Shown piece by piece: positions 1,482 to 9,010 of a stretch of DNA of 12,173 nucleotides. Position numbers and translations under genes: made by a program. Source of the DNA: an uncultured bacterium (GTDB lineage: Bacteria; Hydrothermota; UBA3073; NMUJ01); assembly GCA_965612795.1 (NCBI GenBank), contig CBFDTI010000037.1, positions 1-12,173 of the forward strand, written 5' to 3'. The notes under the pieces are model-generated. The model did not search any database. It was not told the DNA's origin and worked only from the letters and a program-made list of their open reading frames with translations. The first letter of the stretch is position 1; each line of letters opens with the position of its first letter.

Positions 1482-1805
1482 TTAACGTGTAAGCAACAAC
1501 ATATATGCAACTGTTACACCCAATATATCAGCTATGATATCCTTGTAGCTTACGTACGTGTGACGTACTTTCCAATCGTACAGCTCTTTCAATACACCCA
1601 ACGATATCGTAACCCCTATCGCTAAGTTACGTGCAGGTTCATAACGCCAATCATTTTGGCAATACGTCACATGGAATAATATCGTCGATATACCAAGAGA
1701 GTAACTAAAATGGTGCAACTTATCCACACTGAACCACTTATCTTCAATTTTATACGTACTGTCGGGTGATACCATCACCAGTATACCTATAAGGATGATA
1801 GCCAT
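1482..1805 (-). CDS. YfiM/DUF2279/VanZ-like small membrane protein
   Basis: Motifs DKWFSVDKLHHF, KELYD and SYKDIIADILG with hydrophobic helices. ATG at 1805 (MAIILIGILVMV), preceded by GGTGGGG, is preferred over the track's GTG start at 1817. Confidence 0.75.
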   Translation of the reverse strand: MAIILIGILVMVSPDSTYKIEDKWFSVDKLHHFSYSLGISTILFHVTYCQNDWRYEPARNLAIGVTISLGVLKELYDWKVRHTYVSYKDIIADILGVTVAYMLLLTR

Positions 1806-2494
1806 TCGCCCCACCACAGAATACCACGTAACGTTAGATGAACATCGTAGCGATAACCCATAAATTCAGCCCCTAACCAACCCCAACCTCCTGTGAATAT
1901 AATTTTCATACCCTCTGCTTGTTGCTTAAACCGCTGAATAATGCCTTCAATACGGGCAACTTCACCCCATACGATGCCGGCTACTACACCTTCGTTCGTG
2001 TTACGTCCAATAAGTGGTACCTGTTTGGTGATTGTGAATTCGGGTTTTATGTTTAAATGTGGCAATTTTTTATGATAAAACTCACACGAATAAGACACAC
2101 CTGGTAGTATTAGCCCACCTTGATGTCTGTGATCAACTAGAAAGTCCACCGTGGTTGCCGTCCCCATATCTATTACAAGTAAAGGCGAACCCAGCATTTT
2201 ATGTCCCGCTATTACGTTTGCACGTCGGTCAACCCCCAACCCTTCATAAGCCCATTGTATAGGGGCGGGTGTCCTTTTGGTTAGCCATACAAATTTGTCT
2301 CTATGAGTTGTTATACTTACTGTAGTATCACGTACGGATATGATAAACACTCTTATCACTTTATCCAGATATTGCTCAATTATCGATAAGGCTTCGTCCC
2401 ATGTATCTTTACACCATGCTTTCTCTATATCTGTAGTACCTAAACCCACCTTGATTTTGGTAGTACCTATATCAACTGCTAGCTTCCATGCCAT
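1787..2494 (-). CDS. coaX: Type III pantothenate kinase
   Basis: LAVDIGTT (canonical DxGNT), GLGVDR, VIDMGTATTVD, GGLILPG, GRNT, IFTGG and LTLRG match the CoaX motifs in order. Confidence 0.93.
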   Translation of the reverse strand: MAWKLAVDIGTTKIKVGLGTTDIEKAWCKDTWDEALSIIEQYLDKVIRVFIISVRDTTVSITTHRDKFVWLTKRTPAPIQWAYEGLGVDRRANVIAGHKMLGSPLLVIDMGTATTVDFLVDHRHQGGLILPGVSYSCEFYHKKLPHLNIKPEFTITKQVPLIGRNTNEGVVAGIVWGEVARIEGIIQRFKQQAEGMKIIFTGGWGWLGAEFMGYRYDVHLTLRGILWWGEWLSSL

Positions 2495-3518
2495 TAATGA
2501 ATGACTTCACTAGTTCGGCACGCTCTTTCTCGGCGATATGTTGTTGTAATTTTCTACCTGTACGTTTTTCGAGATGTGAATGCCTTGTGATCAACAGCAA
2601 GTTGGTAAATCTTGGCAATTCCTTTGCTGAAAATATGAGCCCCATCGAGATACCCATCCGGATACCTGAGATGTAGGTCCAGGTTTCCTCTTCTGATAAT
2701 AGTCGTGCGTATTTTAGTAACCCCCACGATCTGGTGACTTTATCTTCTAGAATATCGGCCAGATGTGTATTCATAACCTCACGTGCCTTGTTCTCTTGTT
2801 TGATGAGCGCATTAGCAAGATACTCGAAGGGTGTGATTATCTCTTCACGAAATGCCCAAGTAAGTGCGTTAGTTACCACGAATATGTAGCCGGTAGTACC
2901 TGCACCCCATAGGTTGTGAAATATGAACCCCTGTGGAGTAAGTGTCTCCACAGTAAAGTTATATTGTCTCAACAATACTAATGCAGGGAGATGCAAGGTG
3001 ATCGCAACCCTCAACCCTGTACCTACCTCAAGTGGTGACGCAGTGAGGTGCCCCCATTCCTCTGAATATGCATATTCGAGGCCTAATATTTTTGCGGTTT
3101 CGTTCGCTTTATGATACGCTTCCCTTATGTTAAGCCCGCTCGCAAAACTCTGTATCACAAGGTGGTCACGGTCGTTCACCATTATGCTTATGTCTTCGTC
3201 AGTACTTATAGCTACGAGTTTACCTTTGGGTGAATCGAGGAACGTCTTACTGATGAGAAACCTCTCCCATAAGAAGTTGCGGTCCTCTGGGCTTAGCTCT
3301 TCGCCCTTAAAGGTTGTGAACTCTTTCAACTTTTTACTATGTTCGATCGCATAGGCTATGATCTCGCGCACCTCTTCGAGTTCGTCATCGCTCGCCTTCA
3401 GGGGGAAATTGTATCCTTTAAGGTTGCGTACGAGTTTAGCCCTTGTAAAAAGTGGTATATCAGAAGTAGTATCGCCCCACCACTCAGGTGCTCTTTTGGC
3501 CTTTTGCTCTAAGTTCAT
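2472..3518 (-). CDS. mcsB: McsB-family ATP:guanido phosphotransferase homologue, probably catalytically inactive
   Basis: RNLKGYNFP, SIMVNDRDHL, GHLTASPLEVGTGLR, LHLPAL, EDKVTRSWGLLKYARLLS and SGIRMG follow the McsB scaffold, and the gene lies directly downstream of mcsA. Active-site motifs are substituted (see findings). Confidence 0.9.
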   Translation of the reverse strand: MNLEQKAKRAPEWWGDTTSDIPLFTRAKLVRNLKGYNFPLKASDDELEEVREIIAYAIEHSKKLKEFTTFKGEELSPEDRNFLWERFLISKTFLDSPKGKLVAISTDEDISIMVNDRDHLVIQSFASGLNIREAYHKANETAKILGLEYAYSEEWGHLTASPLEVGTGLRVAITLHLPALVLLRQYNFTVETLTPQGFIFHNLWGAGTTGYIFVVTNALTWAFREEIITPFEYLANALIKQENKAREVMNTHLADILEDKVTRSWGLLKYARLLSEEETWTYISGIRMGISMGLIFSAKELPRFTNLLLITRHSHLEKRTGRKLQQHIAEKERAELVKSFINGMEASS

Positions 3519-3963
3519 TTTCGATTTCTCTTATCTTATCGCGTATCTTGGCAGCCTCCTCGTATGCCTCCTTGTCAAGCAGCTCCTGCAATTTCCTCCT
3601 CAATTTGTAAAGCTGAAGGTGTTTGTCAGGTTCTTCGTCCCTTATTTCTGCACCTTTTGGGGGTACCTCTTTCTGCCATGGTGTACGTACTAATAAGTTT
3701 TTAATAAATTGGCCAAACGTTTCATAGCAGGCGATACACCCGAGCTCCATATTCTGTAGGAACTCTTCGTATGTGAGCCCACAACGTGGACATACGCGTT
3801 GCCCTTGCTGTACATCGTGTTTTGGGACATAGGGTTCTTTCGATATTTCCAGCTTATTACGCAGGCATATACTACATATAGGGATGATCTCCTTATTCTC
3901 TCGGAAGACTACTATTACATACTTGAATTGGGCTTCACGTTTACCGCAAACAGCGCACTTCAT
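3484..3963 (-). CDS. mcsA: McsA-family protein (four CxxC motifs plus C-terminal UvrB/UvrC coiled coil)
   Basis: CAVC, CSIC, CPRCGLTYEEF, LGCIACYETF and LQELLDKEAYEEAAKIRDKIREIE; adjacent to mcsB. Confidence 0.92.
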   Translation of the reverse strand: MKCAVCGKREAQFKYVIVVFRENKEIIPICSICLRNKLEISKEPYVPKHDVQQGQRVCPRCGLTYEEFLQNMELGCIACYETFGQFIKNLLVRTPWQKEVPPKGAEIRDEEPDKHLQLYKLRRKLQELLDKEAYEEAAKIRDKIREIENELRAKGQKST

Positions 3964-4615
3964 TTAATACCCCCTTACTTAATTGATAGCAGCGATCTGC
4001 AATTTTCATCATTTTATTTTTGTGTGTCACTATCACCGCGGCCATCTTTCTATCTTTAATTACTCGATAGATCAAATTATGCAATAGGTCACTCGACTTC
4101 TCGTCAAGGTTACCTGATGGTTCGTCTGCTAATAGTATTGATGGTAGGTTTATTAGTGCGCGTGCAACTGCAACCCGTTGACGTTCGCCACCTGATAATT
4201 CTGCGGGATAGTGAAACGTTTTACCATGTAACCCCACAAGATTGAGTAGTTCCACCCCAAAGTCGAGATCGGGCTTCTTACCCTTAATTATAGAAGGTAG
4301 TAGCACGTTTTCAACCACGGTTAACTCAGGTATTAATTGGTGGAACTGAAACACAAACCCTATTTTCTCGTTACGTAAGCGGGCAAGCTCACGATCACCC
4401 AACGTGGATGTATCACGTCCATCGATCCATACTTTGCCAGTGTCGGGTTTGTCGAGTGTCCCCAGTATGTTGAGCAGTGTGGTCTTACCCGAACCCGATG
4501 GTCCTAACACCACCACAATTTCGTTTGCACGTACTTCCAAGTTTATACCCCTAAGTACAGTCAACCGTCTCTTATCCTCTGGGTAGCTCTTCCAGATATT
4601 TTCTGCTTTAAGCAT
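3941..4615 (-). CDS. lolD: ABC transporter ATP-binding protein, LolD/MacB-like
   Basis: Walker A GPSGSGKTT, LRNEKIGFVFQFHQL, signature LSGGERQRVAVARAL, LADEPSGNLD and IVTH switch; 224 aa. Family is certain; lolD orthology is only probable. Confidence 0.8.
   Translation of the reverse strand: MLKAENIWKSYPEDKRRLTVLRGINLEVRANEIVVVLGPSGSGKTTLLNILGTLDKPDTGKVWIDGRDTSTLGDRELARLRNEKIGFVFQFHQLIPELTVVENVLLPSIIKGKKPDLDFGVELLNLVGLHGKTFHYPAELSGGERQRVAVARALINLPSILLADEPSGNLDEKSSDLLHNLIYRVIKDRKMAAVIVTHKNKMMKIADRCYQLSKGVLNEVRCLR
3970..3976 (-). promoter_or_regulatory. Shine-Dalgarno-like site for mcsA
   Basis: AAGGGGG followed by TATTAA and the ATG at 3963. Confidence 0.5.
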
Positions 4616-7600
4616 TAGCGGATGACAAGAAATTTATCAAGTTTGCTAGTGGTTAGGCGTTGACCAGGCTCTTCTCTTATTGCAACAACCTTGTAGAAGT
4701 AGATACCGCTGCCAATTTTGTCGCCGATAAAGTCGCATGTATCCCATTCGATCTCATTATAGCCGGCGGATAGGTCGAACGGGCCCAACACCTGTATCAC
4801 CCTACCCGTGATCGTGTAAATACGTATCCATACCATGCTTTCTTTAGTTAGGTAGAAATAGAATGTAACTTTATCACCACGCACGGGGTTGGGGTAAACC
4901 CGCAATTGTGTAATGTCAAGCGGTTGCTCCCACATTACAGTTATGTGAAAAGAATCTACCCGCACATTACATATGTTATCAGAAGCTGAGAAGTATAAGG
5001 TAAAATCCGATAGCGCAGGTGGTACATTCACCTCGTACTCGAGCTTGCCGCGTGTCTGGCTACCTAAATCGTACGTGAAGTAATCACTTAGATATATAGG
5101 GTTGGAAAATCGTGGATCATCGTAACTCATACGTATCGCATAAGGACCAGTTCTATCGAATATATTGATACCGCTTGAATCCTCTATCACACCATAGAGG
5201 GTAAAAGATGGTGGTATCTCCATGCCAGACCTTAGTTGTTTACCATTAACATAGAGTTTGATGGTTGGTGGCACGGTATCGTTAATCACATGCGTATCTC
5301 GTATCACTATACCTGATATGCCTATAGTTGCCTCGTTGTCGGTACCGTCCCACCATATAAGGCTTATCTTACCGTCATCACCCGCCATGGGTGGCTGTAA
5401 TAGTGGCCATGCTGGTGTGACAAACCGTATGCTAAACTTACCACCTACTACCGGTGCTATGCCTTCGAAGATAATCTCTTTATCTACCCTACCAGGGTAT
5501 GGGAAATACTGGTTGTTATACCCAGTAAATGGTGGAGCCCCTCTCATTGTATAGGTGATTGTGCCACCCCCCGGCAAGCTATGCGTATGCGTGTACGCAG
5601 ATGATAGCACGGTAACGTAGACCATACCATTGGGTAGACCATCGCCTTCGATCAGCGCTTCGGCTCCCCCATATAATGTATCAGGTACGTGTATATACCA
5701 TGTACTTATGTCGATATTGTTTAATCTTACTCTTATCAAGGGTTCACCAAACCCCTGATAGTTATCGTAGCTACCACCCGGGTATAACTTAGCCATAAGG
5801 AATGCATCACCTAACCGATTTACACTATCGGAGAATATCGATCTGAGCAACCTTACTCCTACGTTTTGGTTGGTAGTCGCCGATGCGGCACGGGTTGACG
5901 CCAACACCCCTATGGCACCGCCATGTGGCCACTTCTCGAGGTAATCACCGAGCCCATCTTTAGCTAAACGGTCGAAACACCCTACACCACATGCACCGAA
6001 GTAAAATATTGGTAGCTTGTAGTTATTTTCAAGCCCGTAGATATCGTCAGGGTTGACAAATACGCGTTCATGAGCTATAGTCTCTATGCTGCCATGGCCC
6101 ATCCACATAGCCAGAAACATACCCTTGTGTAGATAACGTAATATATCTTCCTTAGCACCGGGCTTATTACCAGGTCGGCTCGCAGGTGTCCAACTTGGAT
6201 CAGTAGCTTGTGTTACACCTTGGTAATTCATCAAGTATACCTTGTAGATGTCGTAACCTGCTGGTATTAATGGGGCGAATGAATTTTCAACCTGACTTGT
6301 ATGAAGCGATTCATTGATGGATTGTCCGTATTCGTCATCTGCTATGAGTAATACGCGGTGACGCCACCCACCATAAGAATGTTCGTAGTTGATAATCTTT
6401 TCTGTTAGCCAATAGGCTTCTTCTTCATTTTTTACAGTTGACCGCGTTATGACAACATCTGGAATGTCATCCTCATCGTAATTAATGCACGCAAAGTAAT
6501 CATCATAGCATTTATTCCCCTGAGGTGGGTACCCAAATATTCCGATGAGATAACCAGTCTCGTATGGAGGGATACGGTTACGATCGACTTCCTCTTTATA
6601 TCCATATGTACCTGCACCAAACAGATACACGTAACATAATCCCCAGTTATTGTATGCGTAGCGGATGAACCTCCTTATAGCGTCTGGGTGTGGGTAGCCG
6701 AACGAAAAATTGTCGTAGATTTCGTCGATTGGTACCACTTTCGTTTTTATACCGTGTGATGTACGCCATTCAGCTATTCGATTCGCGTAGGGTATGAACT
6801 CACGTATAGTGATGATTGTATAGTCCACATCTTCGTCCGTATAAAGCGAATATGGGTTAGATCTTTCAATTGCATCCACTGAGTAAGGGGTCGCTGTCCC
6901 TATATAGACGCCAGGTGAGGCATGAAATTTGTAGATATTACCCTCAAATGTACCACCTACCACTCGTACGGGTGTATAGCTATCCGTGATATTGAAAACG
7001 TAGGGATATGCACCAAACCCACTGATATAGACATTGGTATCCTCTTTTATTTCGAATTTTATGTCACGGTCGTGGGGTTCAAACCTACAGTCTGCAGTTA
7101 CTTCGAAGTAATCGAAATATAACCTATCTTCGAGCGTATCTTGGGGTGCCTTCCACTGTAGGATTGTGAACTTGTTTTCACCAGTTTTTAAATTGGTTAC
7201 TGGTACTTCCAACACCCATGGTGTGTAGGTGCTACCACCTTGTATGGTATCAGTACCGACCACGTGGTCGTTCAGTAGTAGCTTTACTCTATGTACCTGA
7301 GCACTTGGATTTTCACCGCTAAGATTGGTCCAATATCGATAGAATACTACCTTGAGGTAGCCACATGAATCTGCCAACTCTGGCAAATTAAATGTATAGG
7401 ACCAGCGGTTTTCAACTTCTATGGGGGAGCGGACAAGTTCCGTCCATATCCAACGTAACCCACCACGTGCGGGACAGAGGTGATCCTCCTCCCAATGGAA
7501 CGTATATGTGAATCTGTCCGGTGGTGTTTCACCTGTAGGGGGTGCTACCATGCTGTCTCTTCTACCGTCAGCGCCACCCCAGGTCAGCCAGTACGTTATG

Positions 7601-8460
7601 TAATCAGAGTATGGATTAAGATAGGTGGTGGGGAATTTATCCCATCCGTGTGGCCCCATCGCATAGAATATGATTTCGGAGGTTTCGTCAAATGTTATGC
7701 CACTTTTTACGTAGATAGGTATTTCTACAAGTGTGTCACCGAATGATAGCCTTAACCCAACGGGTGGTGCGTATATTTTAATTGTGCGAGGGTCGATGAA
7801 GTCGGGTTCAATACCTGCATTTATGAGATCTTGATATGTGATCCTATATATACCTTCGTGCGAAATCCTTAGCTTATACCAATTGGCTGTAGTCTTCTGG
7901 GGTGTGACCGGTTTACGGGGTACACGCCAGGATTTTGCCGTCTCATAATTGAGCAACAATGCACGATAAAGAGGTTCCATTTTGTCGACCTTGTAACTAC
8001 CTGGCTGGCCTCCAACGAAGGTCACCTTTACTCTCATCATCCTGTGTATGCGCAGGGTTTGGGTTGCAGGATTATACTGTGCGAAGTTTAGCTTAATAAA
8101 GGCGATATGTTGATCCCTAAACATACCCTGCTTGGCGAGTTCAACAGGTGCTGGTGGATAGTACTGGTTGGACGTCAAAGTGTGGATTGGCTCACCATAT
8201 ATTGGAGGTACGGGTTTGATGTAGTGTTTGAACTGCTGGGTTTCTGTATCCAATAGTTTCACATCAATTTGAGCACCTGGAGGTATACCAAGCACCACAA
8301 AGTCGTATGGCACCATAGGTAGACCTGGGTCGCTGGGATAATAATAAGGTGCACATTCGATGTCATCTATTGTAATTTCCGATCGATAGATGAACTCCAT
8401 ACCGTGTGGGCCACTTTTGACCACCTCGATCTGCACAATGAGCAATAATGCTATCAACAT
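4615..8460 (-). CDS. C25-family (gingipain clan) cysteine peptidase, PorU-like, with N-terminal propeptide and C-terminal T9SS type A/FlgD-Ig-like domain
   Basis: Propeptide-like PGLPMVP...LGIPPG...QYNP; PorU-like WYKLRISHEGIYRITYQDL, FYAMG, NPYSD...YWLT, IYDNFSFG..HPDAIRRFIR, LLIADD; dyad motifs WMGHG (His789) and FGACGVGCFD (Cys824); DTVPPTIKL, IEDSSGIN; C-terminal VYPNP...IRIYTITGRVI...GYNEIEWD...SGIYFYKV. Confidence 0.88.
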   Translation of the reverse strand: MLIALLLIVQIEVVKSGPHGMEFIYRSEITIDDIECAPYYYPSDPGLPMVPYDFVVLGIPPGAQIDVKLLDTETQQFKHYIKPVPPIYGEPIHTLTSNQYYPPAPVELAKQGMFRDQHIAFIKLNFAQYNPATQTLRIHRMMRVKVTFVGGQPGSYKVDKMEPLYRALLLNYETAKSWRVPRKPVTPQKTTANWYKLRISHEGIYRITYQDLINAGIEPDFIDPRTIKIYAPPVGLRLSFGDTLVEIPIYVKSGITFDETSEIIFYAMGPHGWDKFPTTYLNPYSDYITYWLTWGGADGRRDSMVAPPTGETPPDRFTYTFHWEEDHLCPARGGLRWIWTELVRSPIEVENRWSYTFNLPELADSCGYLKVVFYRYWTNLSGENPSAQVHRVKLLLNDHVVGTDTIQGGSTYTPWVLEVPVTNLKTGENKFTILQWKAPQDTLEDRLYFDYFEVTADCRFEPHDRDIKFEIKEDTNVYISGFGAYPYVFNITDSYTPVRVVGGTFEGNIYKFHASPGVYIGTATPYSVDAIERSNPYSLYTDEDVDYTIITIREFIPYANRIAEWRTSHGIKTKVVPIDEIYDNFSFGYPHPDAIRRFIRYAYNNWGLCYVYLFGAGTYGYKEEVDRNRIPPYETGYLIGIFGYPPQGNKCYDDYFACINYDEDDIPDVVITRSTVKNEEEAYWLTEKIINYEHSYGGWRHRVLLIADDEYGQSINESLHTSQVENSFAPLIPAGYDIYKVYLMNYQGVTQATDPSWTPASRPGNKPGAKEDILRYLHKGMFLAMWMGHGSIETIAHERVFVNPDDIYGLENNYKLPIFYFGACGVGCFDRLAKDGLGDYLEKWPHGGAIGVLASTRAASATTNQNVGVRLLRSIFSDSVNRLGDAFLMAKLYPGGSYDNYQGFGEPLIRVRLNNIDISTWYIHVPDTLYGGAEALIEGDGLPNGMVYVTVLSSAYTHTHSLPGGGTITYTMRGAPPFTGYNNQYFPYPGRVDKEIIFEGIAPVVGGKFSIRFVTPAWPLLQPPMAGDDGKISLIWWDGTDNEATIGISGIVIRDTHVINDTVPPTIKLYVNGKQLRSGMEIPPSFTLYGVIEDSSGINIFDRTGPYAIRMSYDDPRFSNPIYLSDYFTYDLGSQTRGKLEYEVNVPPALSDFTLYFSASDNICNVRVDSFHITVMWEQPLDITQLRVYPNPVRGDKVTFYFYLTKESMVWIRIYTITGRVIQVLGPFDLSAGYNEIEWDTCDFIGDKIGSGIYFYKVVAIREEPGQRLTTSKLDKFLVIR

Positions 8461-8693
8461 TGGCCCTTAATTGCTATACATGTGGTGGTCGATAATATTC
8501 CATCAAGTTTATGTACCTTACCCGCGATTAAATCGCCCAGCTTCTGAAAATCTTCCACTTTAACAAAGGCGATGAGATCGAACGGACCGGTCACCACACA
8601 TGCGGTTTTTACCTCTTTTATTTCTGTGAGCTCTGCTAATACGTTATCTACTTTGTTTGCCTCTGTTCGTATGAGGACGTAGGCTTTTATCAT
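8454..8693 (-). CDS. Stand-alone Lrp/AsnC ligand-binding (RAM) domain protein, no HTH
   Basis: 79 aa: AYVLI...V...L..IKEV.....VTGPFDLIAFV.VED...L...I..KV.KLDGI..TTT.I is the characteristic AsnC C-terminal pattern. Confidence 0.88.
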   Translation of the reverse strand: MIKAYVLIRTEANKVDNVLAELTEIKEVKTACVVTGPFDLIAFVKVEDFQKLGDLIAGKVHKLDGILSTTTCIAIKGQC

Positions 8694-9010
8694 TGTGTGC
8701 TCTTTGCTTCCAGAGTTTCTATGAAATATTCTAACCCTTTGCGCTTCTCAAGTGCTGATTGTAACTTATCGTACACCGTAGTTGTGGGATATATCATCTG
8801 TATTATGGGTCTAAGTATTAGCATCACCTGTGACCCTATAAAACTTAGGGGCTTGCTTGACTGTGCAAACAATATTGTAGGTACGGTGAGCCCACGCTTA
8901 ACGATTTCGTCGGCAAACTGTTCAAGTACCTTCTTTTCTTCCTCTGTAAGCTCATACTCCTCGGATTCGACTGCAAACGCGTGCCTTAGTGCGTGCCAGA
9001 ATTTACCCAT
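8690..9010 (-). CDS. Conserved hypothetical protein
   Basis: 106 aa, overlaps both neighbours (8 nt and 4 nt); core IVKRGLTVPTILF..S.KPLSFIGSQ; amphipathic N-terminus MGKFWHALRHAF. Confidence 0.8.
   Translation of the reverse strand: MGKFWHALRHAFAVESEEYELTEEEKKVLEQFADEIVKRGLTVPTILFAQSSKPLSFIGSQVMLILRPIIQMIYPTTTVYDKLQSALEKRKGLEYFIETLEAKSTQ

Follow-up and report, generated by a model that had tools for sequence, protein, structure and literature searches.

A McsB homolog stripped of catalytic residues is kept under purifying selection in a genus of uncultured WOR-3 bacteria

The accepted function of McsB is to write the phospho-arginine (pArg) degradation tag, which is read by ClpC. For what is an McsB retained when the residues for writing this tag are replaced? 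The question is raised by a gene on a contig from an uncultured bacterium (GenBank CBFDTI010000037.1, assembly GCA_965612795.1). The window, which is the whole stretch of 12,173 nucleotides that was analyzed, is contig C37 of a 1.42-Mb WOR-3 assembly (G000, 99.48% complete). It contains 12 long open reading frames (ORFs), all on the minus strand, one of which codes for the McsB-like protein P0001. Two genomes, G001 and G002, belong to the same genus, and G003 is from the same order. We hold with moderate confidence that P0001 is an McsB-derived pseudokinase, kept as an McsA-bound, probably ClpC-linked, non-catalytic module whose partner and role we infer.

A preliminary description of this stretch had reported an intact ORF of 348 codons for P0001, which is confirmed by translation. 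The protein matches the Pfam domain PF00217 (ATP:guanido phosphotransferase catalytic domain) over residues 50-244 (E 1.3e-32; 113 bits, cut-off 22.4). It also matches all five NCBIfam models for protein arginine kinase, each far below the curated cut-off (the McsB models NF002194 and NF053707 give 256.7 bits with a cut-off of 385 and 237.3 bits with a cut-off of 500, respectively). When solved structures are searched with phmmer, the best match is McsB from Geobacillus stearothermophilus (6fh1; E 2.6e-48, residues 17-339 of the query). McsB from Bacillus subtilis (8wtb_A, E 9.2e-48) and 6tv6 are also matched, and classical arginine and creatine kinases rank far behind.

Retention of the McsB fold is predicted as well. 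The AlphaFold2 model of P0001 has a pLDDT of 91.8 and a pTM of 0.90, with a pLDDT below 50 only at residues 206-208 (lid). It was driven by an alignment (A1) of mostly canonical McsB, so the model speaks for compatibility with the fold and is no independent proof of it. In a Foldseek comparison against the PDB, McsB chains come first (6tv6, 6fh3, 6fh1; TM 0.89-0.91, rmsd 2.2-2.5 A over ca. 355 columns). Architecture (two domains) and length are the same as in the McsB proteins of B. subtilis and G. stearothermophilus (6TV6, 6FH1-3; 8WTB/8WTC; for Staphylococcus aureus, 8GQD).

P0001 differs from canonical McsB in that the equivalents of E121, C167, E212, R31, R125, R207, R337 and D338 are all replaced (Table 1). 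Here and below, B. subtilis numbering was counted along the alignment to 8wtb_A (the chain index is the native number plus 2; checked on R125, C167, R176, R207, E212 and R337). The motifs named in the preliminary description (NDRDH, Ser161, HNLWGAG, AEKERA, FTRAK, ERFLIS and HLVIQ) and their nucleotide coordinates proved exact in every case upon alignment to solved McsB. ERFLIS (residues 85-90) is opposite EKHLIS in the phmmer alignment. The possibility that the motifs are merely shifted is rejected, as the alignment is gap-free around each of them.

Table 1. Features of the mcsB region, with positions given for the window
Feature	Position	Strand	Remarks
mcsB-like gene (P0001, 348 aa)	2472..3518	-	phosphagen kinase-type domain and C-terminal dimerization domain; catalytic residues replaced
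FTRAK (residues 24-28) replacing SSRIR	3435..3449	-	R29 kept as R26; R31 -> K28
NDRDH (residues 115-119) replacing NEEDH	3162..3176	-	R117 at catalytic Glu (B. subtilis E121)
V121 replacing B. subtilis R125	3156..3158	-	phmmer alignment; HLVIQ (residues 119-123) opposite HIRIQ
S161 replacing catalytic Cys (B. subtilis C167)	3036..3038	-	in LTASPLE opposite LTSCPTN
HNLWGAG (residues 201-207) replacing RG.YGEG	2898..2918	-	R207 -> H201; E212 -> A206
AEKERA (residues 329-334) replacing RD..RA	2517..2534	-	R337 -> A329; D338 -> E330; R341 kept as R333
Invariant run (residues 207-334)	2517..2900	-	128 residues; simulated p 2e-5; three genomes
mcsA-like gene (P0122, 159 aa)	3484..3963	-	two four-Cys zinc domains and UVR-type coiled coil
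LolD-like ABC ATPase gene	3941..4615	-	TIGR02211 243 bits, under cut-off 308
coaX (type III pantothenate kinase)	1787..2494	-	Pfam/NCBIfam scans

For E121 of McsB, a catalytic role is assumed by homology to arginine kinase. Of the seven arginines at which a single exchange for lysine abolishes the activity of B. subtilis McsB, four are replaced (R31, R125, R207 and R337). R26, R31, R170 and R333 of P0001 correspond to R29, R34, R176 and R341, which have thus been retained. This leaves three of the six arginines required for kinase activity (R29, R31, R34, R125, R176 and R207; kept as R26, R31 and R170) and one of the three residues of the pArg pocket (R337-D338-x-x-R341). In B. subtilis, the allele mcsB C167S is kinase-inactive, and R29K, R31K, R34K, R125K, R176K, R207K and R337K each abolish the in vitro phospho-signal (PMC7235348). 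C167 is termed the catalytic cysteine (PMC11046695), R337/D338 are the pArg receptor site (PMC8370763), and the essential residues of arginine kinase are Glu225, Glu314 and Cys271 (PMC11075012). The functions that had been attributed to the cysteine, the arginines and the pArg pocket in the preliminary description agree with PMC7235348 and PMC8370763. Judged by the established single-residue mutants from B. subtilis, arginine kinase activity of P0001 is very unlikely.

P0001 might still be an enzyme, either a phosphotransferase or another catalyst, with rewired chemistry or a new substrate. The exchanges do more than introduce small residues; among them are charge swaps at Arg117 (formerly Glu), Glu164 (formerly Asn) and His201 (formerly Arg). 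A Glu-to-Arg exchange at the catalytic position has occurred independently in another WOR-3 family (f12, L044-L046; see below), and P0001 has retained D118, H119, R170 and the GTGLR loop. However, seven positions that are individually required in B. subtilis McsB or in arginine kinase are changed together, and the ex-catalytic position 206 is Ala in G000 but Thr in both genus mates. In the literature that was accessible, no enzyme with a phosphagen kinase fold was found that works without these residues. A new catalytic function is possible but unsupported, and we regard it as improbable.

The replacements far exceed what is found elsewhere in the family. Alignment A1 was made with the 120 best hits from the database; over the 119 sequences from outside the genus, it has 78 columns with a conservation of at least 90%. 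P0001 keeps the conserved residue in 52 of these and is off consensus in the other 26; the median for the other sequences is 1, and the highest value for an unrelated one is 10. The columns for the catalytic Glu, the Cys and the second Glu are 98-100% conserved in the 119 other hits. Among 150 representatives of clusters at 50% identity, P0001 keeps the fewest of 17 key residues (five), while 101 representatives keep 16 or 17 and only ten keep 12 or fewer.

The gene is present in a single copy. A PF00217 search of G000 returned P0001 as the only match, and with P0001 as query, one match each was found in G001 and G002, which have the same degenerate form (94% identity). This query has a match in 37 of 41 related genomes. 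Intermediates between the form found in this genus and canonical McsB were sought, and nothing was found between 94% and 40% identity. When 1.84 billion cluster representatives were searched exhaustively with HMMER, there was one close match (a 159-residue fragment with 99% identity), all others having at most 38%. In four metagenome runs, each from a different study, contigs cover mcsB at roughly 90-99% identity. An artefact in the assembly of a single metagenome-assembled genome is rejected, since the same form occurs in G001, in G002 and in the contigs of the four runs.

The single copy also bears on the proposal, made in the preliminary description, that the protein acts on an active McsB paralog, as its inhibitor or as its partner in hetero-oligomers. 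The other two roles named there, a kinase-independent ClpC adaptor and a new ligand sensor, are taken up below. McsB does form dimers and higher oligomers (PMC8370763), and the dimerization domain is the best-conserved part of the protein in the genus, as would suit such a partner. Nevertheless, an active paralog is rejected for G000 by its only PF00217 match, and G001 and G002 likewise have just one match. This proposal is hardly credible for these genomes.

Within the genus, the gene is under purifying selection. Among the three genomes, the ratio of non-synonymous to synonymous substitution rates (dN/dS, Nei-Gojobori) is 0.055-0.104 for mcsB at a dS of 0.24-0.48, to be compared with 0.14-0.20 for coaX and 0.067 for mcsA (G000 vs. 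G001). The share of non-synonymous changes in mcsB is far under the neutral expectation (binomial p 4e-17 to 7e-35). The 31 variable amino acid positions are found at 4-160, 206 and 335-347. The invariant run between the latter two (Table 1) covers the last part of the kinase domain together with the dimerization domain. Positions 160 and 206, which once belonged to the active site, differ between members of the genus. R117, E164, H201 and W204, which are new residues in the pocket, are identical in all three genomes. On gene trees, the stem of the genus has a length of 1.4-1.7 substitutions per site, compared with a median of 0.15-0.22 for end branches. A long stem together with low variation fits a burst of change that was followed by tight constraint.

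These data are difficult to reconcile with a decaying relic that has lost its function recently and has not yet acquired a frame disruption. The genome is small (1.42 Mb), scores for the NCBIfam McsB models are under their cut-offs, and the stem branch is long, as might be expected for a relic. However, dN/dS is low over a dS of up to 0.48, the frame is intact in three genomes, 128 consecutive residues are invariant and the predicted fold is confident. In addition, no insertion, deletion or joint is listed within 2472-3518 in the four metagenome runs, indels being listed only in coaX. In the preliminary description, recent decay had been pictured as close relatives with NEEDH and CPTN and a dN/dS near 1; the nearest canonical relative turned out to be only 36% identical. 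Recent pseudogenization is rejected on the basis of dN/dS and intact frames, and we consider a relic highly improbable. The earlier proposal that the scaffold is kept under selection while its chemistry is dismantled is borne out.

The gene neighborhood indicates where this form came from. The reading frames overlap, the LolD-like gene with mcsA by 23 nt, mcsA with mcsB by 35 nt and the 3' end of mcsB with coaX by 23 nt. G003 has the identical gene order (lolD-mcsA-mcsB-coaX), and its McsB, which is 36% identical to P0001, has kept the Glu-Cys-Glu triad. Thus, mcsB of G000 is the resident ortholog, which has been changed in place. The coaX neighbor is shared by the loci L009, L010 and L016, all with canonical McsB.

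The McsA partner is also encoded. P0122 contains the UVR motif (PF02151), reaches 74 bits with the NCBIfam McsA model NF053706 (cut-off 210), and matches residues 81-180 of B. subtilis McsA in 8wtb_B (E 9.4e-13). The eight zinc-binding Cys residues that are invariant in 22 WOR-3 McsAs are all present in P0122, and its zinc sites are intact. An McsA-sized gene with eight Cys codons is found upstream of mcsB in all 25 aligned loci, with the exception of a 5'-truncated copy in G002.

Continued binding of McsA by P0001 is suggested by a model of the complex, which has an interface score (ipSAE) of 0.75, the best of three controls having 0.00. Of 157 solved complexes, 116 attained this mark, as did 2 of 215 mismatched pairs. 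The complex runs share at least 41% of the contacts, and the partner pLDDT is at least 58. The predicted interface (McsB residues 32-41, 117, 150-165 and 221 with McsA residues 60-63 and 71-91) is the lambda1-3/Z2 interface of the solved B. subtilis complex. There, the second zinc domain and loop L3 of McsA bind to the McsB loops 35-45, 143-173 and 227-233 (PMC11046695).

The degradation machinery that could be served by such a complex is encoded elsewhere in G000. A ClpC-type unfoldase on contig C92 has two Clp_N repeats with both G.EH glutamates and an IGF loop, and its middle domain is short and of the UVR type; ClpP is encoded on contig C81. Among the genes that the preliminary description had proposed to look for, clpC was thus found, while ctsR and a second canonical mcsB were not. 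CtsR (PF05848) was detected neither in G000 nor in any of 41 WOR-3 genomes, with positive controls in B. subtilis and L. lactis. A loss of the pArg pockets of ClpC was considered and rejected: both G.EH glutamates are kept, and ClpCs encoded beside canonical McsB look alike, so that the pocket does not discriminate. At those positions that can be judged, the ClpC N-domains show no difference between loci with a canonical and loci with a degenerate McsB.

In six other WOR-3 loci, clpC is directly downstream of mcsB (L015, L018, L019, L021, L029 and L031). McsB is degenerate in L031 and canonical in the other five. There is no simple pattern that relates degeneracy to adjacency of clpC, and other genes occur downstream of mcsB in both classes. 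As a separate observation, contig C52 (locus L033) codes for a ClpB-like protein in a frame of 1055 codons, with a long insertion between its single recognizable Clp_N repeat and the first AAA domain.

In the non-catalytic module that we favor, the resident mcsB of the genus, in its ancestral lolD-mcsA-mcsB-coaX position, has lost the residues that bind the ATP phosphates, that orient and deprotonate the guanidinium group of the substrate, and that receive phospho-arginine. It would have retained the fold, the dimerization domain and the McsA-docking surface. The resulting dimer, bound to McsA and non-catalytic, would most likely act in protein quality control, either by recognizing clients and handing them over to ClpC/ClpP or by regulating ClpC/ClpP, in both cases without arginine phosphorylation. 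The link to ClpC is proposed because of what is known for the family and because mcsB is followed directly by clpC in further WOR-3 lineages, one of them degenerate. This role is suggested because the known partners of the family are present, because clpC is an operon neighbor elsewhere in the phylum, and because a function without kinase activity has already been suggested by genetics in B. subtilis. There, C167S is milder than a deletion with respect to MgsR turnover, which the authors read as a kinase-independent adaptor function (PMC7235348).

Several points weigh against this proposal. In G000, clpC is not adjacent to mcsB. In B. subtilis, engagement of ClpC by McsB is reported to depend on arginine phosphorylation (PMC7235348), so that a dead McsB would need another route to ClpC. 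R26, R31, R170 and the GTGLR loop have been kept, and nucleotide binding is possible. The model of the complex may draw on remembered solved structures of McsA/McsB (8WTB, 8WTC, 8GQD); as like complexes have already been solved, the predicted docking shows likeness and does not prove continued binding. The McsA of this genus has Glu73 at the position of B. subtilis R96, where other WOR-3 McsAs have mostly Lys and in a few cases Arg or His; in B. subtilis, stimulation is lost upon R96K exchange (PMC7235348). Its H.GK motif in loop L3 is replaced as well, although this motif is present in all other aligned WOR-3 McsAs except in L005 (Y.GK). With these two changes, the canonical activating contact is altered. 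Finally, a 203-bp deletion in the G002 assembly takes away the 3' end of lolD together with the start and the first zinc domain of mcsA, while mcsB is intact. A further deletion of 110 bp is inside lolD, and both are out of frame (L003/L040; equivalent to ca. 3800-4560 of the window). Neither deletion was seen in the contigs from the four metagenome runs, so that both may be confined to that strain or have arisen as errors in its assembly. If the larger deletion is real, McsB would function in that strain without need of full-length McsA.

Some of the same data could be explained by a sensor or regulator that is non-catalytic and acts with McsA but independently of ClpC, e.g., as a holdase that senses redox state or heat, as a sensor that binds nucleotides or ligands in the remodeled pocket, or in envelope or lipoprotein quality control via the conserved lolD neighbor. 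In addition to the unlinked clpC, the retained R26, R31 and R170, and the identity of R117, E164, H201 and W204 in three genomes, this explanation can draw on the zinc Cys residues of McsA. All eight are kept, and they are a redox-sensitive element in B. subtilis (PMC7235348). It can also draw on the gene upstream of mcsA, which codes for an ABC ATPase (ABC_tran) of the LolD type in this window, where the frames overlap, and in 16 of the 22 loci from WOR-3 that were tested. Yet canonical McsBs show this synteny too, and it may reflect gene order and nothing more. Moreover, positions 160 and 206 vary while the dimerization domain is invariant, so that the constraint is not centered on the old pocket, and no result points to a ligand. 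A ClpC-independent sensor is the main rival to the ClpC-linked module, and we consider it rather unlikely.

The order lolD-mcsA-mcsB itself is found throughout the phylum (WOR-3, loci L009-L031), often with overlapping frames and with no obvious functional reason.

This genus is not the only one in WOR-3 with a degenerate McsB. We scored 35 full-length homologs from 35 WOR-3 genomes (30 loci and five lower-scoring homologs), leaving out a C-terminal fragment (G020) and an N-terminal one (G037), the latter being canonical over the part present. The Glu-Cys-Glu triad is kept in 17 of these and incomplete in the other 18, in a sample that is weighted towards relatives of G000. Parsimony on the gene tree requires at least 6 changes of the triad state, a rough count, given that the tree includes the columns of the trait, that long branches attract each other and that kin are not independent. 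The other degenerate lineages are L022/25/27, L020/24/26, L023, L031/L043, L042, L044-46 and L007/13; they are separate on the tree from the genus described here, which is the most stripped among the 150 cluster representatives. Most of them have the Cys-to-Ser exchange as well. Every degenerate McsB examined still has McsA beside it, and this genus is the only examined degenerate lineage in which McsA has also lost H.GK.

It is tempting to speculate that a dead McsB is a recurrent stable state, that the core function of McsA-McsB is kinase-independent and that arginine phosphorylation is a dispensable add-on. We advance this tentatively, with somewhat more doubt than belief. If true, a function such as client recognition or regulation of ClpC by an McsA-bound dimer would suffice in many bacteria.

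Family f12 (L044-L046; from G038, G026 and G032) consists of McsB-like proteins that are only 21-24% identical to P0001 and are on a stem of 3.2 substitutions per site. With Arg in place of the catalytic Glu and Ser in place of the catalytic Cys, they seem to have converged with this genus. Four other proteins with 502-535 residues (P0133, P0174, P0193 and P0264) match McsB from around residue 157-202 onward. Their N-terminal extension is McsA-sized, and they may be McsA-McsB fusions.

When compared to the B. subtilis system, the locus is similar in that mcsA is immediately upstream of mcsB, in the predicted site for docking of McsA-Z2, and in the presence of ClpC and ClpP in the genome. It differs from the class III heat-shock operon of Bacillota (CtsR/McsA/McsB/ClpC), as it is flanked by the LolD-like gene and coaX, ctsR was not found and clpC is unlinked. 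P0122 differs from B. subtilis McsA by having neither the R96 equivalent nor the H.GK loop motif. S161 corresponds to the Cys-to-Ser change of the laboratory allele C167S. Unlike that allele, which has one engineered change, P0001 has natural changes in at least seven essential positions, and these are fixed in the genus.

As in other pseudokinases and pseudoenzymes, a homolog from an active family has its fold and partners under selection while the catalytic residues are missing. The fold, however, is that of phosphagen (guanidino) kinases, whereas the best-known pseudokinases have the fold of eukaryotic-like Ser/Thr kinases. A 2025 review on bacterial pseudokinases names McsB, in its accessible text, only in the reference list (PMC12599244). 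Our literature searches, which covered few of the subscription journals, returned no paper on a naturally occurring McsB that is catalytically dead.

A small, streamlined genome thus spends a conserved gene of 348 codons, and a partner gene, on an McsB that cannot plausibly write the pArg tag. This suggests that McsA-McsB has a second activity, which is non-enzymatic and has so far only been hinted at genetically, by C167S in B. subtilis. Natural dead McsBs offer a clean way to tell adaptor or regulatory functions apart from those of the kinase. They also call for caution, as the annotation "protein arginine kinase" outside of Bacillota is not in itself evidence for arginine phosphorylation.

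A few further observations concern the window and its genome. The only low-molecular-weight phosphatase domain of G000 is encoded on contig C18 (11409-11807, plus strand; L035) and has the P-loop CTGNRTRS. It is fused behind a Sua5/TsaC-like region (named by eye) in one frame of 351 codons. Upstream of the LolD-like gene, the window codes for a sortase of the PorU type from type IX secretion (4615-8460, minus strand; 1281 residues; NF033707, 462 bits, above cut-off), in a genome of only 1.42 Mb; its gene ends one base ahead of the start of the LolD-like gene. At 8454-9010 (minus strand), a protein of 79 residues has an Lrp/AsnC ligand-binding domain as its sole domain and lacks one for DNA binding. 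It is preceded by an ORF of 106 residues that has no Pfam or NCBIfam match, and both are just downstream of gcvPB. In coaX, the population variants from three of the four metagenome runs contain paired +1/-1 indels at 2319-2357. The members of each pair are 3-5 bases apart, so that the frame is restored after one or two codons.

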